Shown piece after piece: positions 653 through 29,463 of a stretch of 39,573 nucleotides of DNA. The notes beneath the pieces were generated by a model that was given only the letters and a program-made list of their open reading frames with translations, did no database searches and had not been told where the DNA came from. Numbering within the stretch: position 1 is the stretch's first letter; the number at the start of each line of letters is the position of its first letter. Made by a program: the position numbers and the translations under genes. The DNA is from a virus, in IMG/VR virus record IMGVR_UViG_3300033075_000869; one strand, 5' to 3'.

Positions 653-888
653 AAGACGCAATTCAAGCAGTGTTCAAATATGCCGGTCATGTTGATTCTT
701 GGATTGTTATCAAGAAAGAGCTTCTGAAACAACTATCGCATAATGACCGTACGGCATTTTCAACGCGACATCCTATTACGAAAAAACAACAAACAAATGA
801 CTTTGAAAGAACAATTGCTCAACGTTGGGAAGAATTGTCTGGGCGGAAGGTACTATTTAGTTCTGATGAAATCAGTTCAGGATCATAA
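634..888 (+). CDS. hypothetical small protein (84 aa)
   Basis: Protein-like ORF filling the gap between the Nudix gene and the next gene. No recognisable motif. Confidence 0.35.
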   Translation: MFDDRIEDAIQAVFKYAGHVDSWIVIKKELLKQLSHNDRTAFSTRHPITKKQQTNDFERTIAQRWEELSGRKVLFSSDEISSGS

Positions 889-1915
889 AGTACTACGTGA
901 ATACGTTAAGCAAATTTTGCGTGAAGATGATTACGGTGGCATGATGATGGCTGCTGGTGATATGAATCCGTACGGTGTTCATATTGCATCAAACGACGCA
1001 CTATACAAAACTTTCATTAAGCCATTTGTTGATGTTGTTGATGTTGCTGCGGGCAAAACAAAAGAGCTGAGTCAAAAAGCACAAACGCTTGGGAAAATTG
1101 CATTCGAAACAATCGGATCAACAATTTTCCCGTGGTTGTCATCTGACTATGCAGAAATCTTTCAAGAAGAAAAATCTCAGATCGACAAGATTAAATCGCA
1201 ATACGCTGAAGTGTATCAAGCGACTTGGGACGCATTCCAAACAAATGACGTTGCTTGGACAGCATTCTTTTGTTATCCTGGTGCTGTGTTTGCGTCGTCG
1301 CTTGCTCGCAAAACGCCACTTGTAACTCTAAAAATGTTGAGTGTGTTTTCTGGTGGGACTATGGACAGTTTCTTGTCTCGGGCACAACAGAAATTTTCAA
1401 CTGACGGCAAAAAGAGCACTAACAATAGTGACAGCATTGATAAATTGCCGTCACCTACTTGGGAATCTGTGTTGCGCGAAGACGATGAGAAAAAACATCA
1501 ACCCAAGAAAAAGATAACATTGGCTGATGTTCTCACCAATGAAAAAGTTATTAAGAAAGCTCTTAGTTCTCCAACTGCACAACGTATACAAAAAGAAACA
1601 CGAGAAGTTGTTCGTGGAACATTGCAGTCTGTGTTTGAACATGCACAAGCAGTTATGTCATCAAAATCTTTTGAAGAGCTTCAGAAGAAAATTGGCAAAC
1701 CCCTCAAGGGACTAGAAAAGCTAAAGGGTATGCAGCCTGAGGCACGTCAAGCAGCCGAAGCACAAGTTTTGACTACACTCAAGAAGTCAATGACTGCTTT
1801 TTACGTAAAGAACCTAGAAGCACAGGTGAAACAAGCACTTGATGCCGGGATTCCACAAAACAGTGGTTACGTTAAAGATTATGCAGCTGTGATCCAGAAG
1901 ATTAAAAGCCTCTAA
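866..1915 (+). CDS. hypothetical helical protein (350 aa) with N-terminal MKSVQDHKVLREYVKQILRE motif
   Basis: Long ORF. Start chosen at ATG 866 (verified), which puts the shared LREYV..ILRE motif at the N-terminus. The track ORF starts at 743. Confidence 0.55.
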   Translation: MKSVQDHKVLREYVKQILREDDYGGMMMAAGDMNPYGVHIASNDALYKTFIKPFVDVVDVAAGKTKELSQKAQTLGKIAFETIGSTIFPWLSSDYAEIFQEEKSQIDKIKSQYAEVYQATWDAFQTNDVAWTAFFCYPGAVFASSLARKTPLVTLKMLSVFSGGTMDSFLSRAQQKFSTDGKKSTNNSDSIDKLPSPTWESVLREDDEKKHQPKKKITLADVLTNEKVIKKALSSPTAQRIQKETREVVRGTLQSVFEHAQAVMSSKSFEELQKKIGKPLKGLEKLKGMQPEARQAAEAQVLTTLKKSMTAFYVKNLEAQVKQALDAGIPQNSGYVKDYAAVIQKIKSL

Positions 1916-1929
1916 ACAAATTCTACTAA

Positions 1930-2232
1930 TTGTTGTATTATGAATTTATGGGTAAATCTCCTGAAAAACAATATAACATTGCTGATAAACAACCTGACGA
2001 AGTTAATGAACTTCGTGAACTTGTTAAGGAATTTGTAAAGAAAATCGAAACAGTTGATGGTGAAATTGAGCTCCTAAAGGGTGATCGTAAAGAGATCATT
2101 GAAGAGTATAGTGACAAACTTGATATGAAAGTTTTGACTGCTGCACTTCGTGTTGTAAAGATTACGCAAGGTGTCGCGCATCGTGATACGTTCGACCTCT
2201 TTCTAGAATGTTTGGATCCCACGGTTGAATAA
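1930..2232 (+). CDS. hypothetical acidic coiled-coil protein
   Basis: ORF of 100 aa, rich in E/K heptad-like sequence. Confidence 0.45.
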   Translation: MLYYEFMGKSPEKQYNIADKQPDEVNELRELVKEFVKKIETVDGEIELLKGDRKEIIEEYSDKLDMKVLTAALRVVKITQGVAHRDTFDLFLECLDPTVE

Positions 2233-2605
2233 CATGGCAACCAACACAAAGAAGAAAGTTTCATCTGAAAAATCGGGTGAATACGGACTAAGTCTGACTG
2301 TTACGGAACTGACACATCTACGTGATCTGATGTCAATTATGTTGCCACCAGAAGGTAAAGTAACAATGAGTGCAGCATTGGCCCAACTTGAATCTCGTGA
2401 TGACGTTGATGACACTTTGTGGGATAAAGTTTGCTCACGTTGTGAGCTTGCTGGTGTTCATATTGGTGATTCTGCGCCAAATTTGATTGTCGCACCATCT
2501 GATATTGTTCCACTTTCGGTATTTCGTTTCGAACCTCACGAGCAACCTGAAGTGGTTGAGCCTAAGGTTGCACCACGAAGCAATTCTAAAAAGAAAGCAA
2601 GGTAA
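2225..2605 (+). CDS. hypothetical protein
   Basis: ORF of 126 aa packed tightly in the plus-strand block. Confidence 0.45.
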   Translation: MNNMATNTKKKVSSEKSGEYGLSLTVTELTHLRDLMSIMLPPEGKVTMSAALAQLESRDDVDDTLWDKVCSRCELAGVHIGDSAPNLIVAPSDIVPLSVFRFEPHEQPEVVEPKVAPRSNSKKKAR

Positions 2606-2608
2606 CAA

Positions 2609-3037
2609 ATGGCGTATAAAGTTGGACAAGTACTGTACGTTGTTTTGCAGAAGCAAACAACTGTATATCCAATGCAAATCGTTGAAGAAATTACCAAGAA
2701 AACGCTTGAGGGTTCTGTTACAGATTATGTTCTACAGGCAGGTGCACAAGAAGAAAAAATTCGCCTGAAAGATATTCAGGGTGAAGTGTTCGAAACACCT
2801 GAGCAAACAAAAAAGGTTCTCATTGAACGTGTTGTGAAACAGATTGAGAGACTTGTTGATACAGCGGTTAAGAAATCACAAGAATGGTATCCAACACAAA
2901 CAACAGAGAGTCATCGTCCTAGCCCGGCACCGACACCGGGTACGTCAAATATAAATTCTGTCGACATTCCAACGTTGGAACTTCCTGATGGAACAACTGT
3001 TCGTGTTAAATTGCCTGAAATATTGATGAATGACTAG
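2609..3037 (+). CDS. hypothetical protein
   Basis: ORF of 142 aa. It starts 4 nt after the previous stop. Confidence 0.5.
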   Translation: MAYKVGQVLYVVLQKQTTVYPMQIVEEITKKTLEGSVTDYVLQAGAQEEKIRLKDIQGEVFETPEQTKKVLIERVVKQIERLVDTAVKKSQEWYPTQTTESHRPSPAPTPGTSNINSVDIPTLELPDGTTVRVKLPEILMND

Positions 3038-3452
3038 TCAAGTTTTCCCAAAACAAACAGATCAAATTTATCCGACATATTCTAAGATCAAGTACCAAAT
3101 TGATCAATTGGAATGTTTTCCAACGTGGGAAGAATTTCTAGAATATGAATGTGTTAGATGTTCTGGTAAATTTAATATGTTTGAACGAAACAATATTCAA
3201 CGTTATGCATATGACGTTGGCCTATATAGTCTCGTGAACTGGCTTCAACGGTGTAAAGAGCTCGGGCATTCATATACAAAAATGTATGATCCAGCATTGA
3301 AACATTATTCCAGACTTCATGGCCCACGTGAAGGGTGGATAACATCGGATCTAAAGAAAAAGTTGTTTGTTCGTGAACTTGAAGCACAACGCTCTGAACT
3401 TGAGCTAAAGCTACAAGCTATTCAAGACAAACTTGAAGAAGTTAAACCATGA
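3030..3452 (+). CDS. hypothetical protein
   Basis: ORF of 140 aa. Its stop overlaps the next start (ATGA). Confidence 0.5.
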   Translation: MTSQVFPKQTDQIYPTYSKIKYQIDQLECFPTWEEFLEYECVRCSGKFNMFERNNIQRYAYDVGLYSLVNWLQRCKELGHSYTKMYDPALKHYSRLHGPREGWITSDLKKKLFVRELEAQRSELELKLQAIQDKLEEVKP

Positions 3453-3712
3453 AATATGGTTCTTTTACGCCTCGACCTGGCGATCTATTCACATGGCATT
3501 ATAACGATAACGACAAACAGTGTGTGGCAGATTTGTGGATTATTGGCGGTTACGTTCCGTCTGTAGAGGTAAATTTGCTCATTGCCTTGACTGATCGATT
3601 TATTTGGTGGGTTCAAAATGGCAGCTTTTTGTTCAGGGTTATCGATCAGCCAGCGCAAACAAGTGCAGAACCTTATTTGAGAAAAATTCATCCACGAATT
3701 CAGGTTGTGTAA
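3449..3712 (+). CDS. family A small paralog (MKxGxFTPRPGDLFTWHY...IHPR)
   Basis: One of 5 paralogs sharing N-terminal FTP(K/R)PGDLFxWHYDxDD and C-terminal F(I/L)xxRxD...HPR. The paralogs differ at synonymous sites, which indicates purifying selection. Confidence 0.6.
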   Translation: MKYGSFTPRPGDLFTWHYNDNDKQCVADLWIIGGYVPSVEVNLLIALTDRFIWWVQNGSFLFRVIDQPAQTSAEPYLRKIHPRIQVV

Positions 3713-3743
3713 TGATGTTACGTAATGAGGTACCATTGTATCA

Positions 3744-4304
3744 ATGGACTTGGCTGAGGCACAGAATATTGGCGATAGAATCGTTGATTCATTGTTGAAT
3801 TGTACAGCTCGAGCAGTCGTTGCCGGGTCTGTTCGACGGTGTAAACCCACCGTCAAAGACATTGAAATCGTCGTTATTGTTACTGATTACGATAAGTTGT
3901 TTACGCAGCTGCGGCAACACGGTCGATTTATTAAGCCGGGTGTTCCACAAGTCATTGACTGGCCACCCAAGAAAAATTCGAAATATATTCGAATGTACCT
4001 CAATGAGGGAATTAAGCTTGATTTGTTTGTGGGCTCGAGTGATAACTGGGGAGCCCTCCTGTGTATGCGAACAGGTAGTGGCGTTGGTCCTGATGGGAAT
4101 GTTCACCATGGATTCATACCTGCGATGTTTCGCCGCTGGAAGCGAGTTTCTGGCGGTGGGAAGATGTCCGGTTGCATGCCAACCATGCCCGACGGACTTC
4201 AACTAAACGTTCCTGAAGAACGTGATTATTTTGACTTGTTGGGTGTTCAGTGGGTTGAACCAAACAAGCGAATTTCTAGCTCGGACGTGAAAGGAATCTC
4301 ATGA
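3744..4304 (+). CDS. minimal DNA polymerase X-family nucleotidyltransferase (ASFV PolX-like size)
   Basis: GSVRR...DIEIVVIV (Pol beta NT motif GS..R...D.D), LDLFV, and overall layout like 174-aa minimal PolX. Confidence 0.65.
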   Translation: MDLAEAQNIGDRIVDSLLNCTARAVVAGSVRRCKPTVKDIEIVVIVTDYDKLFTQLRQHGRFIKPGVPQVIDWPPKKNSKYIRMYLNEGIKLDLFVGSSDNWGALLCMRTGSGVGPDGNVHHGFIPAMFRRWKRVSGGGKMSGCMPTMPDGLQLNVPEERDYFDLLGVQWVEPNKRISSSDVKGIS

Positions 4305-4621
4305 AAACGATTTATTATCTTTCAGATTACAATTGGCAGCGTGGCGAAATTGTGGGTGGTGGGAAAAAGAATCATAAGATCCGTGATCATTACGGAAATG
4401 AATTTTACGTGTCGAAAGACAAATGTGCAGTTGAAGGCGAATCTGTTTGCGTTGTTTGGGAAATGTGGCGTGGTGTAAATGGTCGTGGCGGATATCGAGT
4501 TGAAAGGGTTCTTTACCCAGAACATCGTGTTCCGGCAGAAAAAGTGTATCGTCAGTCAAGTGGCGATGGTCGAGTTAATGAAAATGCAAATCCATTTAAC
4601 GGGAATGGTACTCCCAAATGA
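4301..4621 (+). CDS. hypothetical protein
   Basis: ORF of 106 aa, with ATGA overlap to the previous gene. Confidence 0.45.
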   Translation: MKTIYYLSDYNWQRGEIVGGGKKNHKIRDHYGNEFYVSKDKCAVEGESVCVVWEMWRGVNGRGGYRVERVLYPEHRVPAEKVYRQSSGDGRVNENANPFNGNGTPK

Positions 4622-4917
4622 ACTCAAAACGTGTTTGGGAGTTTGATGACGCTGTTTCTCTTATTCGTGAGATTGAACCTCATTTCCAAAACATTGGACT
4701 ACATGTTGGTTTTACAGGGTCTGTTCTACGACAAGGATTTTCGTCGAAAGACATGTCTTCTCGCGTACTTGAATTGCTAACGTCATTGGGGTGGAAACGA
4801 ATTCGAAATCGACAGGAAATGCTCCAGTGTTGGAGATCATTGTCCAATGAAGAAGTAAAGTGGGTTGAAGTTTACAGTTTCAAACATCGTCGAATTGACG
4901 TTATGTTTCTACAATAA
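4618..4917 (+). CDS. hypothetical protein
   Basis: ORF of 99 aa. Confidence 0.45.
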   Translation: MNSKRVWEFDDAVSLIREIEPHFQNIGLHVGFTGSVLRQGFSSKDMSSRVLELLTSLGWKRIRNRQEMLQCWRSLSNEEVKWVEVYSFKHRRIDVMFLQ

Positions 4918-5190
4918 ATGAAAACGGGTCCTTTTACACCAAAACCGGGTGATTTGTTCAGTTGGTATTATGACACAGATGATACGCCATGTCATAGTTA
5001 TGATCAACTATTCTCAATGTCTATGCGTCTCTGGGTACCTTGTGCAGGCGTTAATACGCTTATTTCATTGACTAATAGCAATATATTTTGGTTGAATGAT
5101 ACGCATATTTTTAATGCACGTATTGATAATACGTCACCATGGCCGAATACGAAGCAAGGTCGTTCGATTTATCCGCGAAAACTAACATGA
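4918..5190 (+). CDS. family A small paralog
   Basis: MKTGPFTPKPGDLFSWYYDTDD...IFNARID...SIYPRKLT. Confidence 0.6.
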   Translation: MKTGPFTPKPGDLFSWYYDTDDTPCHSYDQLFSMSMRLWVPCAGVNTLISLTNSNIFWLNDTHIFNARIDNTSPWPNTKQGRSIYPRKLT

Positions 5191-5579
5191 AAACAAATCC
5201 GAATAACTGGGGGTCTACAAGCGTCGTAAATTACAACTGGTTTCACACTGATGTTGATCATGCTGACATTGAAAAATATGTTCGTTCACCTGAAGAAGAT
5301 GCTGCGCTACAATTCTTGTCACGTGATATTCATTTCGTTATGAGACCATGTCTAGAGAAGTTTAAGAAGTTCTTTGGACGTCAGACATATACATGGGTTG
5401 GTTCAGATTGTAGGTTTTGGGTTTGGGAATTTGACGAACAGATTCGTGTATTTGTTAATTCCCATAAAGGTATTTGTGTTGAACTACGACATGACCTGCA
5501 ACCAAAAGCTGCATATGCAGCAATGATCAAATTTGTAAAGGAAATCAAGGAAAACCAAGAAAGTGAGCTATATGCTTGA
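5187..5579 (+). CDS. hypothetical protein
   Basis: ATG at 5187 overlaps the previous stop (ATGA). The track ORF starts at 5139. Confidence 0.45.
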   Translation: MKTNPNNWGSTSVVNYNWFHTDVDHADIEKYVRSPEEDAALQFLSRDIHFVMRPCLEKFKKFFGRQTYTWVGSDCRFWVWEFDEQIRVFVNSHKGICVELRHDLQPKAAYAAMIKFVKEIKENQESELYA

Positions 5580-5844: not shown

Positions 5845-6050
5845 TCGATCTGAACAATCGAGCTCAAATTATTCTTGAAGCAATTGATGAAGAAATCACT
5901 GAGTGGTTTCTAACACCGGGTAATAAGAAAATGTTGCACTTGCATCTGGGAATGTCGCCTCAAGACTATACAACGTTTCTATTTACGCCGAAAAAGTGGG
6001 CAATTGATTACGTGAAGAAGCTTCACGGAGATGAACTTAAGCAGCCTTAA
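5820..6050 (+). CDS. hypothetical protein
   Basis: ORF of 76 aa. Confidence 0.4.
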   Translation: MSTEVNDVIDLNNRAQIILEAIDEEITEWFLTPGNKKMLHLHLGMSPQDYTTFLFTPKKWAIDYVKKLHGDELKQP

Positions 6051-6300
6051 ATTCAATCCCTTTCATCACGTAAAAATCTCTGATGAGTTCGATTGCTTCA
6101 TCCCAATTGTCTTCATCAAGTGCTGCGTCCATTGCGTTGTTCAACATCTTGGGCGGAACTTTCATTTTTTCTGCTGCCCATTTTAGCAGTTTAATAAACG
6201 CTGCACGCTGATCACTTGTTTTTGGTTTTCGTAGTGGAACCGGTGCTTCTGTGAGCATTAGCAGTTCAATGTATTCACGCAACAATTGCAAACGTTTCAT
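6037..6300 (-). CDS. hypothetical small helical protein, lone minus-strand gene inside a plus block; N-term MKRLQLLREYIELL
   Basis: ATG verified at 6298-6300. It fills an otherwise empty 300-bp gap. The N-terminus resembles the shared LREY(I/V) motif. Confidence 0.4.
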   Translation of the reverse strand: MKRLQLLREYIELLMLTEAPVPLRKPKTSDQRAAFIKLLKWAAEKMKVPPKMLNNAMDAALDEDNWDEAIELIRDFYVMKGIEFKAA

Positions 6301-6350
6301 GCTATTACATATGTGTGTAAAGCAAAAATAACCTGTGTTATAGTGTTAAT

Positions 6351-7443: not shown

Positions 7444-7683
7444 ATGTCAATAGAACGTAAATACGAATCAATCATAGCCGACCTAACGCATCAGCTATAT
7501 CGTGCTCGACTTATTTCGCGTGGTTGGAAGAAACTAGCGAAACTTGAGCGAGCAACAATCGTCCAAGCAGCGGTTGAATCTGCTGCTGGTGATTGGGATG
7601 ATGATGGTCAAAGAGATCGCGTTATTCAACATCATCTTGAGAAGTTTTCAAGCATTAGAGAAACATTGCGAAATCCGAAATGA
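7444..7683 (+). CDS. hypothetical protein
   Basis: ORF of 79 aa. Its upstream intergenic region carries a copy of the CTTCATCCACG motif. Confidence 0.45.
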   Translation: MSIERKYESIIADLTHQLYRARLISRGWKKLAKLERATIVQAAVESAAGDWDDDGQRDRVIQHHLEKFSSIRETLRNPK

Positions 7684-7967
7684 AGACCGGTCCTTTCACC
7701 CCGAAACCTGGCGAACTATTCCAATGGCACTATGACATAGACGATAGTATATGTCAACCTGATGATAAACTGTGGGCAAAGTCTCCTTATCGTTGGATCC
7801 CGTGCGTCGACAACAGCAATTTGCTCGTTGCTCTAACCGCTACGGATATTTGGTGGGTGAATAGTCAAGGTTTTATTCATACATACGTTGATTGCTTGCA
7901 ATATCGCGGCGGGCGCGATCAAGCCGCCACAGAAAATGTCTATCATCCACGCATAGTTGAAATATGA
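7680..7967 (+). CDS. family A small paralog
   Basis: MKTGPFTPKPGELFQWHYDIDD...FIHTYVD...YHPRIVEI. Contains a GC-rich insertion-like segment (GGCGG...CCGCC) near the C-terminus. Confidence 0.6.
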   Translation: MKTGPFTPKPGELFQWHYDIDDSICQPDDKLWAKSPYRWIPCVDNSNLLVALTATDIWWVNSQGFIHTYVDCLQYRGGRDQAATENVYHPRIVEI

Positions 7968-8314
7968 AAAAAGGTCTGTATACACCACGTCCTGGAGATC
8001 TGTTCAATTGGCATTATGATCATGATGATTCAAAATGTAAAGATGACGATAAAGTTTGGTCGTCGTCTATGAAATGTTGGGTACTATGCAACGGTATTAA
8101 CATTCTAATCTCACTAACCGAAACTGATATGTGGTGGATTAATAATCAGAGCTTCATCCACGCGCGCGTGGATAAAATTCCGTCGGCCGCCTGGGTAGGC
8201 GTTCCTCGGCGCTGCTTCATCCACGCGCGCGTGGATAAAATGTTTACACCGACTAGTACTCATATCGCCGAGCCTGGCGAGCGAGCTTTGTCTACGCATA
8301 ATGAAATAACATGA
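7964..8314 (+). CDS. family A small paralog with internal 60-bp tandem duplication and aberrant C-terminus (possibly decaying)
   Basis: FIHARVDK is encoded twice by duplicated palindromic DNA. The C-terminus lacks the family's HPR motif. Confidence 0.45.
   Translation: MKKGLYTPRPGDLFNWHYDHDDSKCKDDDKVWSSSMKCWVLCNGINILISLTETDMWWINNQSFIHARVDKIPSAAWVGVPRRCFIHARVDKMFTPTSTHIAEPGERALSTHNEIT
8153..8238. repeat. Tandem direct repeat of TTCATCCACGCGCGCGTGGATAAAAT (2 copies, 34-bp GC-rich spacer), each holding a perfect 18-bp palindrome ATCCACGCGCGCGTGGAT
   Basis: Exact 26-mer at 8153-8178 and 8213-8238. The palindrome is perfect. The segment is locally GC-rich in an AT-rich genome. Confidence 0.7.
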
Positions 8315-10667: not shown

Positions 10668-10922
10668 ATGAAAACCGGTCTATTTACTCCGCGACCGGGA
10701 GATTTGTTCACTTGGCATCATGATTCAGACGATGGTTTGTGTCGTCGTGGTGAAAAGATTTGGTCTTCATCTAAGAATGATTGGGTGTCATGTGTTGGCA
10801 TCAATATTCTAATCTCACTAACTGAAACTGATGTGTGGTGGATTGATAAAATTAATCTTATTCACTCGCGATATGGTGAAATTGATATCAATCATCTTCA
10901 TCCACGTACGAATAAAACTTGA
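10668..10922 (+). CDS. family A small paralog
   Basis: MKTGLFTPRPGDLFTWHHDSDD...LIHSRYGEID...HLHPRTNKT. Confidence 0.6.
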   Translation: MKTGLFTPRPGDLFTWHHDSDDGLCRRGEKIWSSSKNDWVSCVGINILISLTETDVWWIDKINLIHSRYGEIDINHLHPRTNKT

Positions 10923-13109: not shown

Positions 13110-13436
13110 ATGAAAATGAATAGTCTGCTCATTGAATACGTTAAAACGATCATAGGTGAATTGAAACTTGATCGTGCCTACATAAACAGTCTCATTAGCA
13201 AAAATCCACAACTAACAATAAGTGCTGAACGTGTTGCAAAACAGTGGTTGAAGGATGTAGAATCATATTCAGGCAAGAGACTATCTCCAGGTGAGAAGAA
13301 ATCTATCATGAATTTTTGTATGACACAATATCCAAAGATTCTTAAACAAACCGATAATGACACGATTGAAGCCAATGAAGAGCTTCATTATTTGCTTGAC
13401 TTGAAGTTCTCGGCCCTCAAACTAAGGTTAGAATAA
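13110..13436 (+). CDS. hypothetical protein with N-terminal MKMNSLLIEYVKTIIGE motif
   Basis: ORF of 108 aa. Its N-terminus resembles the shared LxEY(V)..I.E motif. Confidence 0.5.
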   Translation: MKMNSLLIEYVKTIIGELKLDRAYINSLISKNPQLTISAERVAKQWLKDVESYSGKRLSPGEKKSIMNFCMTQYPKILKQTDNDTIEANEELHYLLDLKFSALKLRLE

Positions 13437-14033: not shown

Positions 14034-14269
14034 AAACACGTCTCAAATTTCATGTATTTCCGGGTGATATTCCTAAACGTAACAAAATTGCGATGATGGA
14101 AAATCAGGATGCTGAACTTGCTATTGAAACATACGGTGGATTGAAAACACAGAAGAAGCGTCGTAAATCATATAAACGAATGATTCTGAGTAAAGAACGC
14201 GCAGTGTTGAAACGTCGAGAACAAAATGAAATCAAAAATTCGACATCTTCTGAAGAATTACGTTACTGA
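14030..14269 (+). CDS. small basic protein
   Basis: K/R-rich 79-aa ORF (KKRRKSYKRMILSKERAVLKRREQ). Confidence 0.4.
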   Translation: MKTRLKFHVFPGDIPKRNKIAMMENQDAELAIETYGGLKTQKKRRKSYKRMILSKERAVLKRREQNEIKNSTSSEELRY

Positions 14270-14759
14270 AATTGTCAAAGGAACCGAAGGTCATACAACG
14301 GGTCTGCTTCAAGGTTCAGTATCGACGTCAGTATATGCAGGTAATGTGCTGCGTGATGAAGAAGAAAATGAAAAGAAACTAAAGCGAGCTGTATGTCTGC
14401 TGGTTAAACATCCATCATTGCCAAATATATACCTTGCTGTTTCCCGCAAAGATGATCCCAACGATATGGGCCTTCCTGGTGGGAAAGTAGACGATACTGA
14501 TGTGTCTCTTGAAGACGCTGCTGCAAGAGAACTTCAAGAAGAAACTGGCTTGATAGCAACACATATTTCAAGTCCTATTTTTGTTCGATCGGCTGATGGT
14601 GAATATACTTGCACCACATTTGCAGCAACAGTTGCTGGGAATATTGAAACAGAAGAATCTGGCGTTGTTCGTTGGGTATCACCTGAAGAACTTGTTGCGG
14701 GTTGTTTTGGTGAATATAATAAGTTGATGTTTAAGAAATTGGGAATCAAATATGAATAA
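14226..14759 (+). CDS. Nudix hydrolase with N-terminal MKSKIRHLLKNYVTEIVKGTE motif
   Basis: Nudix box GGKVDDTDVSLEDAAARELQEETGL, nearly identical to MutT GGKIEMGETPEQAVVRELQEEVGI. Confidence 0.75.
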   Translation: MKSKIRHLLKNYVTEIVKGTEGHTTGLLQGSVSTSVYAGNVLRDEEENEKKLKRAVCLLVKHPSLPNIYLAVSRKDDPNDMGLPGGKVDDTDVSLEDAAARELQEETGLIATHISSPIFVRSADGEYTCTTFAATVAGNIETEESGVVRWVSPEELVAGCFGEYNKLMFKKLGIKYE

Positions 14760-23067: not shown

Positions 23068-23310
23068 ATGAACGTCAATCATTTGATTGGTGAGTTTGTA
23101 ATCATAACGGGAGAATCTTGTACAGGATTGATTATAGCTGCTTCTCAATCAAATACAAATCCGCTTAACAATTGTCAAATTGACAACAGTTATCCTCTCG
23201 TATATTATGTTCTAATTTCTGATGGCCTTATAAAGGGTCCGTTGTTCTCATCAGAAATTAGAACATTGTGTTTATTCTATTCGTTCAAGTTGATTAATGT
23301 GAACTCGTAG
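23068..23310 (+). CDS. hypothetical protein
   Basis: ORF of 80 aa. Its end overlaps the convergent minus-strand gene. Confidence 0.3.
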   Translation: MNVNHLIGEFVIITGESCTGLIIAASQSNTNPLNNCQIDNSYPLVYYVLISDGLIKGPLFSSEIRTLCLFYSFKLINVNS

Positions 23311-23529
23311 CATACGTCCAACACGTGAAAATATAACAGACACCGTGTCATCTTTCGACATAGACGAAGAAACATCTGATCCTACGTGAATAACAAGACC
23401 ACGATCACCTGGCCACAACTCGTGCCACGTATTGTTATTTTGATTATTTGACGTTGCAAGTTGAGCAAGGTACGTTGACCAAAATTTGAATACAACAAGA
23501 TCACCCGGTCTTATTGAAGTGTGAGGCAT
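23272..23529 (-). CDS. PGD-motif small paralog
   Basis: N-terminal IRPGDLVVF. Confidence 0.45.
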   Translation of the reverse strand: MPHTSIRPGDLVVFKFWSTYLAQLATSNNQNNNTWHELWPGDRGLVIHVGSDVSSSMSKDDTVSVIFSRVGRMLRVHINQLERIE

Positions 23530-23535
23530 TCACCC

Positions 23536-23814
23536 TTAAATAAGGGAAATGATTGACCAATTACGTCTTAGATTTGAAAGTTTACATGAAAAAATTCGAA
23601 TCGAACCCGAATGTATCGTGATCAATCTGACGTTGTTCCCAACCATCCAGCGTTGAAGAACAATCGCATGCTCATTTTTAAGTATTTGTCCGGGTGATGG
23701 CGCATATACGTTAACAGAGTTCCATGACAACATATCATGAAGCGCAATAATCATATCTCCGGGACATGGCATCAATATTTCTCTTAGTTGTTTTACGTCG
23801 TAAGAATTTGCCAT
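23536..23814 (-). CDS. PGD-motif small paralog
   Basis: MPCPGDMIIAL. Confidence 0.45.
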   Translation of the reverse strand: MANSYDVKQLREILMPCPGDMIIALHDMLSWNSVNVYAPSPGQILKNEHAIVLQRWMVGNNVRLITIHSGSIRIFSCKLSNLRRNWSIISLI

Positions 23815-24005
23815 GTTCTTTCAAATGTATATGATTCCATTGAGAATTCTCCTACGTTATTCCCAACGCTCAATATTTTAAGTTCTATCCAATTTTTGGG
23901 ATACACTACGATTGAACACTGTATTACAAGTCTGATTTGATTATCACTCTTACGAATAATCAATGTTCCGGGTAGAATCGCTGTCATCCAGCTTGGAAAC
24001 GTCAT
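23793..24005 (-). CDS. PGT-motif small paralog
   Basis: ILPGTLIIRK. Confidence 0.4.
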   Translation of the reverse strand: MTFPSWMTAILPGTLIIRKSDNQIRLVIQCSIVVYPKNWIELKILSVGNNVGEFSMESYTFERTWQILTT

Positions 24006-24584: not shown

Positions 24585-24863
24585 TTATACAATTTTAATG
24601 CAATTATCTCTGACCCACCAATGCGCAATATCGATCAAATTTGATCGATATAGAATTTTCACCATGATATCATCTGATTTGATAAAATGATGTGTTGGAA
24701 TATCAGGATAACATGGAATATCTTGATAACAACAAACGACTATGAACAGTTCACCTTCGCCAATGATTGTCGACACGCTGTTTATTTTAAAACAGCGATA
24801 TACGCGGTTCGTTTTGTAATACGAACCTGGTGAAATGTATGAATTCATAATGAAATTATACAC
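24585..24863 (-). CDS. small paralog-like protein (ISPGSYY)
   Basis: ORF of 92 aa with a PG motif near the N-terminus. Confidence 0.35.
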   Translation of the reverse strand: MYNFIMNSYISPGSYYKTNRVYRCFKINSVSTIIGEGELFIVVCCYQDIPCYPDIPTHHFIKSDDIMVKILYRSNLIDIAHWWVRDNCIKIV

Positions 24864-24891
24864 CGTACAGCATCAAAAGTACATTTAGAAC

Positions 24892-25242
24892 ATGGGTTTT
24901 GAAATTGATCTTGGTGATGATGCAACTGTTCAAATAATTTGCGATGAATTCGAAATAGAAATACCGCAGCATTTTATTTGCTTGAATTCAACAGAGATTA
25001 ATAATATTCCACACAATGAAAAACCCGGAGCGCGCATTATAGGATGTGGAAGGTGTAGCAATGGAAATATTGACTTGCTAACAAATGATGGGAAACTACT
25101 AACATTCTCTGCAAAGAAATATGATATCCCGCCGGGCATAGTTGAACCAATTTTGTCCGGTCTTAAGTTGAACATCGGTAACACACATACAGTTGCATCT
25201 AGCTGGGTAATTGAACGTGCTGAATGTTTGATACGTACCTAG
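24892..25242 (+). CDS. hypothetical protein
   Basis: ORF of 116 aa. Confidence 0.45.
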   Translation: MGFEIDLGDDATVQIICDEFEIEIPQHFICLNSTEINNIPHNEKPGARIIGCGRCSNGNIDLLTNDGKLLTFSAKKYDIPPGIVEPILSGLKLNIGNTHTVASSWVIERAECLIRT

Positions 25243-25252
25243 TTATCGATGT

Positions 25253-25510
25253 ATGCTAACAATAAGCGTTGGTCAACTACGCAAGCTAATCAAAGAAGAA
25301 GTATTTCGTAATCTTGCATGGTCTGCAGGATTCTTTGGAAGTGGTCTAAATGGTGCAAGTAGTAATACGTCAAGTGGGACAGCAACTGTTCCACCTGGTC
25401 TTGGTGACGAAGAAGAAAACATAGAAAATGAAGAAAAAGAACAAGAAGAACTCGAATACCTCAGTCAACGTGGCGCAGCAGCAAATTCTCGAAAGGGAGG
25501 ACGCTATTGA
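25253..25510 (+). CDS. small acidic protein with N-terminal [15 protein letters not shown] motif (internal-protein-like)
   Basis: 85 aa with a Gly/Ser-rich middle and an acidic E-rich tail. The N-terminus carries the shared LRKLIxE motif. Confidence 0.5.
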
Positions 25511-25772
25511 ACTTCACGGAATCATTGAAGAGGCTCTGCCGGGAACATGGTTTCGTGTAACATGTGACAATGGTCACAGTGTGTTGGCGACACTGTCTGG
25601 TAAGTTGCGGATAAATCATATCCGCTTGCTGCCTGGTGATAAGGTGTCTGTTGAAGTTTCGCCTTATGATCTATCTCGTGGTCGTGTTACATACCGACGT
25701 TTAGATAGGCACATATGCGCCTCCAAAGAATCATTGCATTTGTTGGAGGCGTTTTTGTATTTAATGTTCTAA
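25428..25772 (+). CDS. infA: translation initiation factor IF-1 homolog with N- and C-terminal extensions
   Basis: [64 protein letters not shown] is near-collinear with E. coli IF1 ([64 protein letters not shown]). The exact start is uncertain. Confidence 0.8.
25719..25762 (+). terminator. Intrinsic terminator: 8-bp stem GCCTCCAA/TTGGAGGC followed by GTTTTTGTATTT, lying inside the last codons of the IF-1 ORF
   Basis: Perfect inverted repeat at 25719-25726 and 25743-25750, then a T-rich run. Confidence 0.5.
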
Positions 25773-25786
25773 TATACGACGGATAC

Positions 25787-25854
25787 GCCAATTGTCTATT
25801 GGCAATACTCATGACACAACTAGCCATATGGCTAAGTTCACCAATTCTAGAATT
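25787..25854. repeat. Cluster of three palindromes in a convergent intergenic region: GCCAAT-tgtct-ATTGGC, TAGCCATATGGCTA, AATTCTAGAATT
   Basis: Found at 25787-25803, 25821-25834 and 25843-25854, between convergent IF-1 (+) and the minus-strand gene. Confidence 0.4.
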
Positions 25855-26689
25855 ACGCTGCGCTCTCTTCTTTGTTCATGTAATTAACATGAGCTAGCAC
25901 TTCTTTATGACGTGCTTGAAGCGTTGTGTATATAATTTTTGATTCAGCTTTCCATTCAGCAGAAAGTTGTTTCATGCCATGTCCTTGTAGCTCATCATAA
26001 ATTTCGTCAGAAGTTGAACTCAAAATTGAGCTAATGGTCGACCATGGAACTGATGAAAAAGTTGCACCAGCTTCCTGTAGATCTCCATATTGAAACACTT
26101 TGCCAGAACCACCAAAATCAGGCTTAAGCATTGTCTCAAGTTCACCAGGCTTGTTTCCAAATTTTGAGCCCTTACGACCACCTTGTGCTCTAAATGTAAG
26201 TGAACCACCAGGATCGATGCGGGTTGCAACATCTTTATCAACAATGATATTGCCTGAACCAGTTCCTATTACGTCCCAATTTGCCAAGAAGATATCTACG
26301 TATATACCTGCTGTCAACATTTTTGCTAGTTTCTTAGGATCTGTTCGAACGTCACCTGCCATCTTGCCCGGAATAGCAGACGTTGCCAGTCCAACTTTTG
26401 CACCTTTGGTGTCATAAACTAGTTCGATTTTAGGAATGTTAACGCCTTCATAAAGTGAATATACCTTATAAGCAAGGTATTCAACCAAGATTTGCAATGA
26501 AGGATTAACATCGTCAATCAGACTTTCGTCTGTGAACTTAAGATAATATTTGTCTCCACCAATTGAACACGTTTTCATAATGTGTGTTGAACCGGTTGCA
26601 AAACATACATCACCAACATCTTCAATGTTGATTTCATTCAAAATCGATTCTCTAATTAGTTGACGTAGTGTTTCAATATTTATATACAT
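25853..26689 (-). CDS. hypothetical protein with N-terminal MYINIETLRQLIRE motif; possible atypical kinase-like fold
   Basis: ATG 26687-26689 verified; the track ORF uses TTG at 26719. Motifs GSTHIMK...YYLKF, DIFLANWDVIGTGSGNIIVD and RIDPGG vaguely resemble PI3/4K- or HipA-like catalytic and DFG loops. Confidence 0.5.
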   Translation of the reverse strand: MYINIETLRQLIRESILNEINIEDVGDVCFATGSTHIMKTCSIGGDKYYLKFTDESLIDDVNPSLQILVEYLAYKVYSLYEGVNIPKIELVYDTKGAKVGLATSAIPGKMAGDVRTDPKKLAKMLTAGIYVDIFLANWDVIGTGSGNIIVDKDVATRIDPGGSLTFRAQGGRKGSKFGNKPGELETMLKPDFGGSGKVFQYGDLQEAGATFSSVPWSTISSILSSTSDEIYDELQGHGMKQLSAEWKAESKIIYTTLQARHKEVLAHVNYMNKEESAA

Positions 26690-26715
26690 TTGACGTGTGT
26701 TCCTTTTTGATTTAA

Positions 26716-29115
26716 TCAAAAACTGTGTTCTTGAAACCCAAATTTTGATTTCAACTTAGATTTTGATGTTGACCAATAAATTTGTGTAACTTTTATCTGA
26801 CCAATTCCAATAGCTTCATCTTCTTGAGTATGAGAATCAAATCCCGGGACTTTATAAAGTCCACCTGGGCCAAGAACAAACTTGTTAGGATTATCATCTG
26901 TTGCGGCAACAAGAAATATTGAATAACCGTCATCACTATTTGCAAAGCTCAAAGCTTGTTCACGGCTAATAGACCAACTTGTTACACCACGATTTTCTTT
27001 AGGCGTAAATGTAAAAGATGCTTCTTTGTGACCATTTTCATCAAGATCGTCTTGATTGTCAATTTTTAGTGCAGACATTAGCCATTTTTTATTAACACTC
27101 ATTCCCCTATAAACGAATTCTTGTGTTGGTTTTTTAAAGATTGAATCATATTGATCAGTTGCCAAAATTTGGCTTATTTCATTTGCAAGTTCTTGTTTGA
27201 TCGGGGTGTTATCCTTGAAGTGAGCAACTAGTGCAGTATAAAGTTCTTGTTCTCGCGCAGTATCAACTTCAATTGGCAATTGAAAACGCTTTTCTGCAAA
27301 TGCATATTGATTTAGAATTGCGTCTTCAGGTGCTTCAGGTGGATTCTTTTTTATTATTTTTCTTTTTTCTACTTCAAATTCTTTAATATAAGGCTCTAGA
27401 ATTTTTTCAATTTTTTCAATTACATTTTGTCGTTCTGATTCTGATGTTGAATTCCACGCAGATACTAGATCATTTTTATGATCAACAGGATAGTGTTTAT
27501 CACTACCCGATGACATTGAATACACAATTGTAAACCAGTTAGAGTCAATATCATTGTCAAAAAATTTATTCCGCAGTTCAGTTTTTTTATCGTATTTGAT
27601 ATTTGCTGATACAGCAAGTTTTCGCAATGTTGACATTGTTTCTAGAAACAATGGATCTTTAAGTACTGTATTAGTCGAAATGATTTTATCGACTTTGTCT
27701 TCAAGCATCTTTAGAGAATGCATTCCTTCATCAGTATCATGATCCACATTTCCAATTTTAAATGCACTTTCAAGCGTTTTATAAAAATTTTCTGTGATTT
27801 CACTTGGTTGAGTTCTAAGCAAACTTGCAATCTTTGCTCCAAATTTCCATACAGGTATTTTATTGTATTCATCAGCATCGAGTGTTATAAGTTTTCGAAT
27901 AATGCTAATTATGAGCAAAAATCTATCTTTTTGATTATTACTCAATGAATATGATTCAATTTTTTTCAAATCAGATTTGACTTGATCAATGTTTGTTTTT
28001 AGAGTTTGTATAAACGATTGTGATTTACTACGCTCGGCACAAGCATCAGTATATGTCTTTGTAAATGAACGTGGTGATTCTGAAAATGCACTAGAAATTA
28101 GTTTTCTTGTAAAGCTATCGCCAACACTATTTGTAATCAAAGAAACAAATGTTGGATCAGAAGGTGAATTTTTAATCAATTCAAAAATTTGGGTCAAGTC
28201 GTTCTGAATTGACCAAGTTTTAATGGCAACTATTTCGTTGGCAATGTTGTTTAGAATTTGTTCAGTATCATTTAGTAGAACTTCATATGCTTTTGTAGCA
28301 TTTTTACTGCCCGGCGATTTTGCAACTGCACGAACCAAATTATTCCAAGTATTACGTGATTCATTATGATTCTTAGAATTTAGTGTTAGCTCATGAATGA
28401 ACTCATGAAAAAAATCTACAAGACGCCAACTAAGATTATTTTCATGCTCAACACGTATAACATTTGATAGTTTTAGTTCTTCAGCAACATCTGGGGTTAT
28501 GTTTTTTGTTCTTTTAACAATTTCGTCAAATATTTGTTTTTGAAGTTTTGGATCGTTTTGATCTGATAGATCAACTGAATTGTTGAATTTTTCAAAAAAT
28601 TCATCAAGTTGTGCATCACTTAGTTTGTTCAAAATGTTATGAAAAACATGATCGACTTCATATATCGAAGCACCACTCTCATGCCAAATTTCATATGCAT
28701 CACGAAATTCATCAATAATATCACTTGATATTCCGTCAAGCGAATCTAGAATCTTAAAAACAATGCGTGGCTTTATTGCAGTGATATCCTGCTTAATCCA
28801 ATTCATGAATTTATATGTCGACATTTCAAGCAGCAGCATTGCTGTTTGGACTTTTACGCGCTTCATATGAATAATTAGGCTAAACGCATCTAAAACTTCA
28901 TAATCGTGTATTGAACGTGACGGTGCCTCTGTACAAACTTCAATTCCTGTACAACCAGATTCACATGTATGCGAATAAACCACACAGGACGTTTCAGCGC
29001 GGGAATTACGAACTTCTAGAACAGATGCAATATAAGTCCTAAGACTAGGTATCACCAAACCCGTATACCAAAATACATTCGAACATACACGAAAAAATTT
29101 TGCTTTGATTGGCAT
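26716..29115 (-). CDS. large (799 aa) protein with N-terminal Cys cluster and C-terminal R-S-E ADP-ribosyltransferase-like domain
   Basis: C-terminal about 180 aa: FVYRG (Arg), about 44 aa later TSWSISREQALSFA (STS-like region), about 50 aa later PGFDSHTQEDE (ARTT loop + ExE). The spacing is typical of C3/iota/Alt-type mARTs. Confidence 0.55.
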   Translation of the reverse strand: MPIKAKFFRVCSNVFWYTGLVIPSLRTYIASVLEVRNSRAETSCVVYSHTCESGCTGIEVCTEAPSRSIHDYEVLDAFSLIIHMKRVKVQTAMLLLEMSTYKFMNWIKQDITAIKPRIVFKILDSLDGISSDIIDEFRDAYEIWHESGASIYEVDHVFHNILNKLSDAQLDEFFEKFNNSVDLSDQNDPKLQKQIFDEIVKRTKNITPDVAEELKLSNVIRVEHENNLSWRLVDFFHEFIHELTLNSKNHNESRNTWNNLVRAVAKSPGSKNATKAYEVLLNDTEQILNNIANEIVAIKTWSIQNDLTQIFELIKNSPSDPTFVSLITNSVGDSFTRKLISSAFSESPRSFTKTYTDACAERSKSQSFIQTLKTNIDQVKSDLKKIESYSLSNNQKDRFLLIISIIRKLITLDADEYNKIPVWKFGAKIASLLRTQPSEITENFYKTLESAFKIGNVDHDTDEGMHSLKMLEDKVDKIISTNTVLKDPLFLETMSTLRKLAVSANIKYDKKTELRNKFFDNDIDSNWFTIVYSMSSGSDKHYPVDHKNDLVSAWNSTSESERQNVIEKIEKILEPYIKEFEVEKRKIIKKNPPEAPEDAILNQYAFAEKRFQLPIEVDTAREQELYTALVAHFKDNTPIKQELANEISQILATDQYDSIFKKPTQEFVYRGMSVNKKWLMSALKIDNQDDLDENGHKEASFTFTPKENRGVTSWSISREQALSFANSDDGYSIFLVAATDDNPNKFVLGPGGLYKVPGFDSHTQEDEAIGIGQIKVTQIYWSTSKSKLKSKFGFQEHSF

Positions 29116-29163
29116 AAATGAATAATACTATACGTTCTGCTAGAAGTACTAGCTACATATAAT

Positions 29164-29463
29164 ATGAAAATCAGATTGGGTACGCTAAGAAAAATAATAC
29201 GTGAAGCTGGAGGTTGGGCCTCGCCACCACAACCAGCAGGCAGGAATTCTTTTTCTTCCGATATCACCAATCGTGAACAAATTGATCGTCTAGATATAGT
29301 CGATAATGACCGCCAACAAATAACATCACATCTGGAAGACCCTACAGAAGATCCTGAGGACTGCTTTGGTCCCGTTCCGCCGATTTCAGATCAAATTGAT
29401 ATACATCAAGACCCATTTTCCAGGGACTATGGGCCAATCCCACATCCAAATGTGGGTAGATGA
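29164..29463 (+). CDS. small acidic protein with N-terminal MKIRLGTLRKIIRE motif (internal-protein-like)
   Basis: 99 aa with acidic Asp/Glu-rich stretches (e.g. EDPTEDPED, pI estimated low). The N-terminus carries the shared motif. Confidence 0.5.
   Translation: MKIRLGTLRKIIREAGGWASPPQPAGRNSFSSDITNREQIDRLDIVDNDRQQITSHLEDPTEDPEDCFGPVPPISDQIDIHQDPFSRDYGPIPHPNVGR

Follow-up and report, generated by a model that had tools for sequence, protein, structure and literature searches.

A shared N-terminal leader on seven otherwise unrelated phage proteins, a candidate capsid-targeting sequence of the T4 kind

The closest described counterpart of the peptide reported here is the capsid-targeting sequence (CTS) of phage T4, MKTYQEFIAE (PMC8442874). 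The T4 internal proteins are diverse and the CTS alone is conserved among them; the N-terminus of T4 gp23 directs fusion proteins to GroEL (PMC3012670). T4 propeptides are 10–20 residues long, and gp21 of T4, gp175 of phiKZ and gp245 of SPN3US are proteases that all cleave after Glu; phiKZ-like propeptides carry the motif S/A/G-x-E and are believed to guide proteins to the prohead interior, and the paralogues gp53 and gp54 have an identical 15-residue N-terminus (PMC5694885). Microcompartment encapsulation peptides are terminal helices of 15–20 aa (about 18), joined to the enzyme by a linker that varies in length and is little conserved; they occur on encapsulated homologues and not on free ones, and several unrelated enzymes carry them in each system (PMC4594438).

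We examined a 39,573-nucleotide stretch of DNA from an uncultured huge phage (IMG/VR record IMGVR_UViG_3300033075_000869; hereafter the window), in which about 8% of the genes begin with a common leader (Table 1). The leader resembles the T4 CTS and propeptides (IPI–III, Alt and gp24, cleaved by gp21) in lying within some 10–20 residues at the extreme N-terminus, in being the sole element conserved across otherwise unrelated proteins of one genome, in its hydrophobic-x-Glu end, and in the makeup of its candidate cargo, enzymes and small charged proteins. The N-terminus of T4 gp24, MAKINELLRE↓S, contains the LLRE core. The first-pass annotation had drawn the parallel with the T4 CTS, which in sequence holds for the terminal (I/L/V)-x-E and goes no further: the window leader reads LLREYVxxxLxE or LRxLIRE, is somewhat longer, and is not similar in sequence to MKTYQEFIAE. 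It also differs from T4 in its far larger set of candidate cargo (27 genes in the related genome LR756500), and the linker behind it is often long, Gly-rich or acidic, and carries a second conserved island. The phiKZ gp175 and SPN3US gp245 systems are alike in that giant phages package many proteins and a related protease cuts after Glu; unlike the window leader, their propeptides are mostly longer than 100 residues, are without a shared consensus leader, and have A/S/G rather than I/L/V two residues before the Glu. The microcompartment examples PduD, PduP, EutC and CcmN share with the leader a helix, a linker and several unrelated enzymes; their peptides, however, are not proteolytically removed and have physico-chemical properties in common but no sequence motif, whereas in the phage leader the sequence itself is conserved, including the terminal Glu.

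Table 1. Leaders, linker islands and neighbouring genes in the window; bit scores are from the orthologue-derived matrices.
Feature	Position	Strand	Remarks
Leader MKSVQDHKVLREYVKQILRE	866..925	+	Flavour LLREYVxxxLxE; ends L-R-E, then DD and a Gly-rich variable linker
350-aa all-helical two-domain protein, candidate cargo	866..1915	+	Conserved gene of 270–360 kb phage contigs
Internal island ESVLREDD	1463..1486	+	Residues 200–207, in hypervariable disordered inter-domain linker
Leader MKRLQLLREYIELLMLTE	6247..6300	-	87-aa protein, gene 6037-6300; 18.0 bits at residue 6
Leader MKMNSLLIEYVKTIIGE	13110..13160	+	108-aa protein, gene 13110-13436; 17.6 bits at residue 6
Leader MKSKIRHLLKNYVTEIVKGTE	14226..14288	+	Nudix hydrolase, gene 14226-14759; 14.4 bits
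Second island NVLRDEE	14343..14363	+	Closes variable linker of Nudix protein
Leader of 85-aa protein	25253..25297	+	Gene 25253-25510; 17.6 bits at residue 7
Leader MYINIETLRQLIRE(SILNE)	26633..26689	-	278-aa kinase-like protein, gene 25853-26689
799-aa protein	26716..29115	-	Between two leader genes
Leader MKIRLGTLRKIIRE	29164..29205	+	99-aa acidic, disordered protein, gene 29164-29463; 18.1 bits
Major-vault-protein (MVP)-like gene	32914..35520	-	MVP_shoulder, 1.5e-30

The seven N-terminal peptides quoted in the first-pass annotation translate exactly as given, from starts at 866, 13110, 14226, 25253 and 29164 on the plus strand and 6300 and 26689 on the minus strand; the starts at 26689, 29164 and 25253 agree with independent gene calls on the source contig, Logan SRR32380201_26854. 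Two scoring matrices were built, each from metagenomic orthologues of one motif protein only (the 278-aa or the 350-aa protein). Over about 11,000 positions, the top non-self matches to the 278-aa matrix included 29164 (18.1 bits), 25253 (17.6), 14226 (10.2), 866 (9.2) and 6037 (9.0), and the 350-aa matrix found 6037 (18.0 bits), 13110 (17.6) and 14226 (14.4) against a background of 11 or less. When the better of the two scores was taken for each N-terminus, just these seven reached the cut-off of 14 bits, whereas shuffled N-termini gave 0.013 such matches on average and never more than 1 (2000 shuffles); of 356 internal segments of 25 aa, none reached 12 bits. The shared signal is real, and stronger than was first claimed. 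The downstream parts are indeed unrelated, all leader-trimmed BLASTP comparisons among the seven proteins giving E > 0.5, and an (I/L/V)-x-E terminus is present on all seven leaders. The peptide had also been called amphipathic, which is true only moderately (hydrophobic moments of 0.26–0.80 versus 0.52 for the 95th percentile of background), and what had been taken for a single motif proved to be two interchangeable flavours, LLREYVxxxLxE and LRxLIRE, of one longer leader. Its general form is M, 3–9 residues, then L-(L)-R/K-x-(Y/L/I)-(I/V)-R/K-x(0-5)-(I/L/V)-x-E, a helix-prone peptide of 14–21 residues at the extreme N-terminus. Both flavours occur inside single orthologous families (P0034, P0079, P0081, P0098, P0141, P0142 and P0212), and they therefore constitute one signal class. 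In each of three families (kinase-like, 350-aa and Nudix) the leader is conserved across over 100 orthologues, and the codons for its conserved Leu, Arg and Ile vary among the seven genes; judged from these sequences, purifying selection acts on the leader peptide, which is kept among orthologues while codons vary. The linkers that usually follow it differ in length and composition and are disordered in AlphaFold2 (AF2) predictions.

The 350-aa protein has no match in Pfam, PHROG, PDB or BFVD, and more than 100 orthologues place its start at 866 and not at the upstream ATG 743. Its leader consensus in 104 orthologues is L-L-R-E-Y-V-R-x-V-L-x-E-D (L99/R92/E97/Y78/V75...L93/E96 of 104); AF2 predicted a helix at residues 3–20 (pLDDT ~50) followed by a disordered linker at 21–40, and an unstructured region at residues 179–218 (pLDDT ~50). 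Within the latter an island, E-[S/G]-V-[L/I/V]-R-E-D, is retained in at least 86 of 121 homologues, with E205 invariant and E200 conserved in at least 90%; the V-L-R-E↓D of this island looks like a candidate second protease site. An island, of family consensus N-V/I-L-x-D-E, also closes the Nudix linker. Of 62 Nudix homologues whose N-terminus is extended by 45 aa or more, 44 have this island and 50 have the leader, which was found in 0 of 34 with a short N-terminus; since leaderless Nudix relatives exist, the leader is a detachable module. A second Nudix gene in the window is leaderless. The "kinase-like" call for the 278-aa protein was borne out by a fold that matches Helicobacter pylori CtkA and protein kinases. 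Its leader has two candidate hydrophobic-x-E ends, E14 and E19 (E19 at least 90% conserved), and the predicted helix at residues 5–17 is of low pLDDT and detached from the domain. This family retains the leader down to 45% identity, and is conserved beyond the first Glu, so that the leader could in part be integral to the fold, which would count against capsid targeting.

Loci from related phages contained 53 leader ORFs that fall into 28 families, so that at least 28 unrelated families are headed by the leader; for 19 of 20 genes at or above 14 bits the match lay within residues 1–15, versus 8.5% expected. Candidate cargo in these relatives also includes a zeta-toxin-like kinase and a DEDD exonuclease, and one cargo domain (DACYHKV..WPSAYASG) recurs as a module in a protein whose annotation is that of a structural protein of a T4-like cyanophage. 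Other huge-phage lineages have genome-wide leaders of their own (MKLTxxxLKQIIKEE, MKLY.ILFEE), which is what co-evolution of each leader with a single receptor in its genome would produce. In LR756500, a complete 462-kb related huge-phage genome, 27 genes start MKYIKEYEEFxxE; the leader, MK(Y/F)I(K/L)xY(E/K)(E/D)F(I/L)xE, lies at residue 2 of the 27 proteins, and no internal match above 14 bits was found in 139,049 positions. This leader, MKYIKEYEEFILE, is close to T4 MKTYQEFIAE, and the genome has adjoining genes for a T4-type portal (Portal_T4, 2e-70), a Peptidase_S77/S80 protease-scaffold fusion (6e-11 / 2e-6) and a gp23-like capsid protein. For the window's own clade, an S77/S80 protease, a T4-like portal and a capsid protein were found neither in the window, nor in the relatives' loci, nor among the best 80 IMG/VR portal hits.

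We give about an even chance to the reading that the leader is a lineage-specific, T4-like capsid-targeting sequence or short propeptide, as the first-pass annotation had suggested. It is the best reading because of the (I/L/V)-x-E ends, the VxRE↓D island, the modularity, and the near-T4 leader together with head genes in LR756500. The modular N-terminal position, the variable disordered linkers and the second V(I/L)RE↓D island all agree with it. The leader would dock cargo onto the prohead scaffold or core during head assembly; a prohead protease of the T4 gp21 family (S77/S80) would then cut after the Glu of the terminal (I/L/V)-x-E, freeing the leader, and might also cleave inside the proteins, at the hydrophobic-hydrophobic-x-acidic islands. 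Once mature, the small acidic proteins and the enzymes (among them the kinase-like and Nudix proteins and, in relatives, perhaps the zeta-toxin-like kinase and DEDD exonuclease) would remain in the capsid and accompany the DNA into the host. If this is true, the leader could predict which proteins such huge phages inject into their hosts. Against capsid targeting stand the sequence difference from the T4 CTS, the head genes and protease looked for and not found in the window's clade, a cargo set far bigger than that of T4, the tendency of leader genes to neighbour the MVP-like gene within a few kb (window, L030, L032, L035 and LR756500), and a few fusion proteins that hold the leader internally; at loci L016 and L018, from one related phage lineage, the leader precedes a canonical twin-arginine (Tat) export signal, which points to export, not packaging.

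The internal leaders and the leader before a Tat signal would fit a cytoplasmic interaction motif, and the leader might be a helix that docks to, or regulates, another partner common to these proteins in the infected cell, with no packaging, although we think this unlikely. The partner could be a phage GroEL-type chaperonin, an AAA+ ATPase, a protease adaptor or a condensate/oligomerisation hub: genes for Cpn60 and an AAA ATPase lie in the window, GroES-like genes adjoin the kinase gene in relatives, the T4 gp23 N-terminus sends fusions to GroEL (PMC3012670), and a conserved helix-prone peptide with a flexible linker is typical of any hub-binding short motif. Such docking leaves unexplained, however, the strictly N-terminal position, the terminal Glu, which is invariant and has a hydrophobic residue two positions ahead of it, the short conserved islands in disordered linkers, and the fact that LR756500, whose head module is of the T4 type, has a leader nearly identical to the T4 CTS. 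The alternative named in the first-pass annotation, in which the leader would load cargo into a non-capsid shell as an encapsulation peptide, most plausibly a shell of the MVP-like protein, is distinctly improbable in our judgement. Its design fits the microcompartment peptides (PMC4594438), the window and its close relatives have an MVP-like gene, with leader genes 3–8 kb away in the window, L030, L032 and L035, and LR756500 also has one, about 4 kb from 7 of its 27 leader genes. Most leader genes are nevertheless distant from it (18–32 kb in the window, 124–455 kb in LR756500), T4 has a leader of the same kind without MVP, distant MVP-carrying phages show no leader enrichment near the MVP-like gene, the window has no BMC or encapsulin shell genes, and the hydrophobic-x-acidic islands resemble cleavage sites and not docking helices; a weak further point is that four large kinase-carrying contigs (184–269 kb) are absent from the best 80 of 242 MVP contigs.

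Selection could instead act on the 5' coding region, through mRNA structure or the start of translation in a host that makes no use of Shine-Dalgarno sites, and not on the peptide; window genes are without an upstream Shine-Dalgarno, and MK with A/T-rich codons opens five of the seven motif genes. This is very improbable given the varied Leu, Arg and Ile codons, the amino-acid conservation across more than 100 orthologues at 40–60% identity, and the absence of the leader from most window genes. An accidental motif, or a diverged paralogous family, might be suspected of a short motif of common residues defined after viewing the sequences; this origin is effectively refuted, as matrices from the orthologues of one protein find the other motif proteins, shuffling expects far fewer matches than the seven observed, leader-trimmed BLASTP finds no similarity past the leader, where the folds differ (kinase-like, Nudix, all-helical), and Nudix relatives without the leader exist.

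The leader genes seen are all among early or metabolic-type genes and none among head genes, which also counts against capsid targeting. The 99-aa protein has orthologues in L030, L032, L035, L005 and L007 that begin MKIRxxxLRRxxRE↓AAG; in related phages their genes are separated from the MVP-like gene by a few kb. The 799-aa protein might, with much uncertainty, be an eighth leader protein if the GTG at 29055 is its start (M-IPSLRTYIASVLE); this putative leader scores only 9.6 bits, and the C-terminal domain of the protein is homologous to leader-bearing proteins elsewhere. The 85-aa protein is Gly/Ser-rich and then acidic, the 87-aa protein has an identical orthologue in the sister-strain contig L161, and a papain-like peptidase gene lies directly upstream of the gene for the 108-aa protein.

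The seven window proteins with a common N-terminal peptide (the leader), designated here by their gene starts (866, 6300, 13110, 14226, 25253, 26689 and 29164), translated exactly as quoted in the first-pass annotation, and three of the seven starts were the same in independent gene calls. The start of the 350-aa helical protein was set at 866 by its orthologues; the upstream ATG at 743 was discounted. Because a motif defined after the fact would otherwise have been tested, two position matrices were prepared, each from the metagenomic orthologues of a single protein, i.e., the 278-aa kinase-like family (26689) and the 350-aa family (866). With the 278-aa-family matrix, about 11,000 positions were scored, and 29164, 25253, 14226, 866 and 6037 (gene 6037-6300, starting at 6300) were among the best non-self matches, all of them at residues 5-12; with the 350-aa-family matrix the top ranks were occupied by 6037, 13110 and 14226, at residues 6-8. 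When the higher of the two matrix scores was used, 14 bits or more was reached by exactly the seven N-termini originally named, compared with a mean of 0.013 matches for shuffled N-termini, and none of 356 internal segments reached 12 bits. The proteins behind the motif had been described as unrelated, in full agreement with the all-against-all BLASTP of leader-trimmed sequences (E > 0.5) and with their differing folds. The codons used for the leader differ among the seven genes, and therefore selection acts on the peptide. Chance, paralogy or nucleotide-level effects are effectively excluded as the source of the leader. The only strong internal leader match found in the window's own lineage was within a 100-aa ORF, which has an orthologue in the sister-strain contig L161; a leader-like helix, NALRELVKEFVKKIE, lies at residue 26 (14.5 bits).

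The leaders are 14-21 aa in length with the core beginning at residues 5-10 in all seven, and the (I/L/V)-x-E ending ascribed to them was present in each (LRE, LTE, IGE, VTE/GTE, IKE, IRE and IRE). Within the kinase-like family (>200 homologues) the N-terminus M(K/R)I(T)xxxLRx(L/I)IRExxLxE(I/V)DIEDV was retained down to 45% identity; the consensus of the 350-aa family was M, 4-9 residues, then L-L-R-E-Y-V-R-x-V-L-x-E-D-D, followed by a Gly-rich linker of very variable length and then a conserved domain. Some kinase-like members carry LLKEYI and some 350-aa members LRxLIxE, so that the two groups of the first-pass annotation represent variants of one signal. AlphaFold models of the 278-aa and 350-aa proteins placed the leader in a separate low-confidence helix (residues 5-17 and 3-20, respectively) followed by a disordered stretch; the amphipathic character attributed to it was present to some extent, but was only moderate. 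The seven leaders are charged and without a hydrophobic h-region, i.e., they showed no Sec/Tat signal features. In the Nudix family, a long N-terminal extension is present in 62 homologues, 50 of which have the leader, versus 0 of 34 with a short N-terminus, and the second Nudix protein of the window is without it; leader plus linker is thus a detachable module.

The kinase-like assignment of the 278-aa protein held, as the protein has a protein-kinase fold with the secreted kinase CtkA of H. pylori as best match. A parallel with T4 Alt was dropped for this protein because in FelixO1-like and Gordonia phages the kinase domain matched only internal portions of large proteins, some of which carry an ADP-ribosyltransferase label. 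The 350-aa protein had no sequence match in PDB and no fold match in BFVD, and, in a search for cultured relatives, the 350-aa and DUF3293 leader proteins had no match among 50,697 phage records. The hypervariable inter-domain linker of the 350-aa family, predicted to be disordered (AlphaFold), holds a single conserved island, E-(S/G)-V-(I/L/V)-R-E-D, that echoes the V/I-L-x-E-D-D with which the leader ends; in the Nudix family a comparable island, N-(V/I)-L-x-D-E, closes the variable linker. In some homologues of the window kinase a further domain is fused in front (Nudix in P0036; a 150-aa domain in P0096 and P0112), and the leader is kept between the two domains, resembling a polyprotein junction.

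Coordinates of the features in the window and in related phage sequences
Feature	Sequence	Coordinates	Strand	Properties
MVP-like protein	window	32914-35520	-	868 aa; Vault repeats, shoulder and SPFH domains; MVP_shoulder 1.5e-30
Prohead protease protein	LR756500	226725-228623 (L075:36726-38624)	-	632 aa; N-terminal domain Peptidase_S77/S80
Kinase-like protein	window	25853-26689	-	278 aa
ORF with internal leader-like helix	window	1930-2232	+	100 aa; orthologue L161:11074-11376
799-aa ORF	window	26716-29115	-	GTG at 29055
GTAC(T/C) element regions	window	850-865, 25235-25252, 29146-29163, others
PGD-motif ORFs	window	3449-3712, 7680-8314, 10668-10922, 23272-24005, 29464-30064, 35596-39512		also in L027, L028
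Genes starting MKLY.ILFE(E)	L021	274-18599		eleven genes
Leader before twin-arginine signal	L016, L018	L016:14311-15120, L018:18427-19317
Basic leader-bearing family	L018, L013, L016	L018:15261-15830, L013:14868-15737, L016:11689-12642		also in L163, L164
Genes starting M(N/S/G/D)R(Y/F)DI.L.KK	L055	6427-17451		five genes
Malate synthase and isocitrate lyase	L024	11920-14853		adjoining

The leader also occurs in related phages. Around kinase homologues on related phage contigs, a strong match fell within the first 15 residues in 19 of 20 genes, compared with 8.5% expected, and the lone exception is a mis-called start. The 53 non-redundant leader ORFs comprise 28 unrelated families; domains recognisable in the cargo include those of a zeta-toxin-like kinase and an RNase T-type exonuclease as well as LRV/HEAT repeats and DUF3293, and further leader genes lie just beyond the range of the window in the sister strain and in a 359-kb relative (L024). 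Other lineages have leaders of their own on many genes, e.g., MKLTxxxLKQIIKEE (L013, L016, L018) and MKYIKEYEEFILE in the complete 462-kb genome LR756500. We conclude that huge phages bear lineage-specific N-terminal address peptides on about 4-8% of their genes, a result which is confirmed and generalisable. The leader motif strings were not found in a literature search.

Several loci showed variations. The 260-kb contig L021 (IMG/VR 3300042453_005404) has genes that start MKLY.ILFE(E), and four other proteins with the window-type leader LKxIIxxxLLxE (zeta-toxin-like kinase, RNase T-like exonuclease, LRV/HEAT protein and kinase homologue), so that one genome holds two leader classes; its kinase gene region lacks an ATG start and, when read in the standard code, contains stops. 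On the 470-kb MVP-carrying contig L055, a common N-terminus on five genes may represent a further lineage-specific leader or a paralogous family. For the 799-aa ORF of the window, initiation at an internal GTG would yield an N-terminus resembling the leader, M-IPSLRTYIASVLE. Leader-bearing proteins of four loci (L009, L005, L006, L007) are homologous to the last 260 residues of this ORF; among them are three tandem paralogues in L009 that start MTHLLRSLIRE. A basic leader-bearing family contains the module 'KKDACYHKV(K/R)SRY.VWPSAYASGALVKCRK'; the module is present as well in a protein annotated 'T4-like structural protein T4-GC0119'. In about 365 cyanomyovirus genomes the gene for this protein is flanked by gp15 and gp16. 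The cyanophage matches were rejected as leader relatives, as matches to the L018 leader protein span the cargo domain and not the leader.

The window is an entire metagenomic contig (Logan SRR32380201_26854, 39.6 kb; G+C about 40%) whose genes are without Shine-Dalgarno sequences. In addition to the MVP-like protein it encodes a GroEL-type chaperonin, an AAA ATPase, ADP-ribosylglycohydrolase, UvdE, RNA ligase, Thg1, a FEN nuclease, two Nudix proteins and an IF1 homologue; its peptidases are papain-like and, in a lipoprotein, trypsin-like. Among deposited phage records the MVP-like protein matched only uncultured huge phages (LR756500, 462 kb; LR756501/3, 735 kb; about 40% identity), and the phage contigs that bear orthologues of window proteins reach 361 kb; on both grounds we regard the window as a fragment of a huge uncultured phage. 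At least 242 IMG/VR contigs from large uncultured phages, the longest of 501 kb, carry a relative of the MVP-like gene (loci L026-L070 and L165-L244), and no description of such a gene in phages was found in the literature.

LR756500, assembled from ten pieces, served for comparison. Its leader, MK(Y/F)I(K/L)xY(E/K)(E/D)F(I/L)xE, stands at residue 2 of 27 proteins, and no internal match above 14 bits was seen in 139,049 residues. Its head genes lie side by side, with the gene for a Peptidase_S77/S80 protein placed between those for a T4-type portal (Portal_T4 2e-70) and a gp23-like capsid protein; beyond the protease domain this protein consists of a long, repetitive helical region, and so it probably represents a fusion of protease and scaffold. 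A prohead protease, which the first-pass annotation proposed to look for, was detected in the related genome but not for the window's own clade, whose portal, protease and capsid genes were not found in the 39-kb window, in the relatives' loci or among the best 80 matches of a portal scan. Phmmer queries with T4 gp20, gp21, gp22, gp23 and gp24 and with the LR756500 portal and protease yielded from the loci only a distant T4-like portal (L051/L052) and spurious gp23 matches in small 'PGD' ORFs; none of the best 80 matches of the IMG/VR portal scan was on contigs of the window clade, and extension of the window through identical proteins gave the same contig on the right side and only 9 kb of the sister strain on the left. 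The 799-aa protein was ruled out as a capsid protein, since neither Pfam nor PHROG gave a match for it and the gp23-like match is to a different protein.

The best-supported mechanism for the leader is that of a T4-like capsid-targeting propeptide, removed after its terminal Glu by an S77/S80 prohead protease, and we would give it about an even chance of being correct. The first steps of this mechanism are shown; in the later ones the leader would direct cargo into the virus capsid and the protease would then remove it after the Glu. The T4 capsid-targeting sequence is MKTYQEFIAE (PMC8442874); it is the sole conserved part of the otherwise diverse T4 internal proteins (PMC3012670), and proteases of the T4 gp21 family all cut after Glu (PMC5694885). 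The LR756500 leader is close to this sequence and ends in (L/I)-x-E, the gp21 cut site. The window leaders had been said to mirror it as well, but the sequences are not similar: they agree only at the M-K start, at the terminal hydrophobic-x-E and, in the LLREYV flavour, at E-(Y/F)-(I/V). The likeness to a T4-type propeptide is instead in the 10-20-aa scale, the extreme N-terminal place, and being the sole element common to unrelated proteins; the N-terminus of T4 gp24 (MAKINELLRE↓S) shares LLRE with the window leader. It is unlikely that the leader docks to another hub. Its retention between domains in a few fusion proteins could reflect an interaction motif, and fits a polyprotein cleavage site equally; against docking, the short conserved islands in the linkers predicted to be disordered fit protease sites better than docking helices.

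The loading of cargo into a shell formed by the MVP-like protein is improbable, although leader genes tend to sit near the MVP-like gene, itself present in a large number of contigs, and both gene and leader are present in the window's clade and in LR756500. A microcompartment encapsulation peptide is a terminal amphipathic helix of 15-20 aa with a poorly conserved linker (PMC4594438), and the leader fits this formal definition in having a helix and a variable linker, with amphipathicity only moderate. A Pfam census of all window ORFs contained no microcompartment shell families (BMC, EutN/CcmL). In the co-occurrence scans, which were pattern-dependent and listed at most 80 contigs, large kinase-carrying contigs were absent among the MVP matches listed (best 80 of 242). 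An improbable variant holds that the leader is not a capsid signal and serves instead to load cargo into a vault-like intracellular compartment that the phage would build from the MVP-like protein; kinases, Nudix hydrolases, toxin-like enzymes and small acidic proteins would be brought together in this shell during infection. In one related phage lineage (loci L016 and L018) the leader directly precedes a canonical twin-arginine signal (MKLNSxxLKxLIxEVxEExxRRDFLKGxAGxAGxAA; weak Pfam TAT_signal match); an address peptide before an export signal is awkward for capsid loading and matches none of the explanations considered here.

Should the leader be a capsid-targeting propeptide, the packaged, and probably injected, proteins of uncultured huge phages could be listed from metagenomes with a simple sequence model, and the proteins with which phages not yet culturable begin to take over their hosts would come into view for the first time. 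The packaged set of the window would then comprise the CtkA-like kinase, a Nudix hydrolase, the conserved 350-aa helical protein and four small proteins, to which relatives would add a zeta-toxin-like kinase, a DEDD exonuclease, HEAT/LRV proteins and many without assigned function. The T4 targeting principle would reach genomes of 200-460 kb with dozens of cargo proteins each, and the leaders would be ready-made tags for loading foreign proteins into huge-phage capsids. The capsid-targeting reading predicts protease recognition sites at (I/L/V)-x-E and V(I/L)RE↓D. Even if the receptor is not the prohead, an address label on so many phage genes provides a strong handle on a sorting system.

Other features were seen in these genomes. 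In three of the seven leader genes (866, 25253 and 29164) the start codon is preceded, 16-18 nt away, by a GTAC(T/C) element, a possible promoter or start-site signal that also stands at similar distance before a few non-leader genes (3744, 24892). The window is rich in small paralogous ORFs, dozens of which (65-115 aa) have the N-terminal motif 'F/Y-T-P-R-PGD-L-F-x-W' or 'PGDL(V/I)'; they form tandem arrays at both window ends and in relatives, with up to about 18 per 20-kb locus. In the close relative L024 (359-kb contig ERZ27245402 k141_2233850 / JGI Ga0265319_1000002), malate synthase adjoins isocitrate lyase, so that both glyoxylate-shunt enzymes are encoded together.
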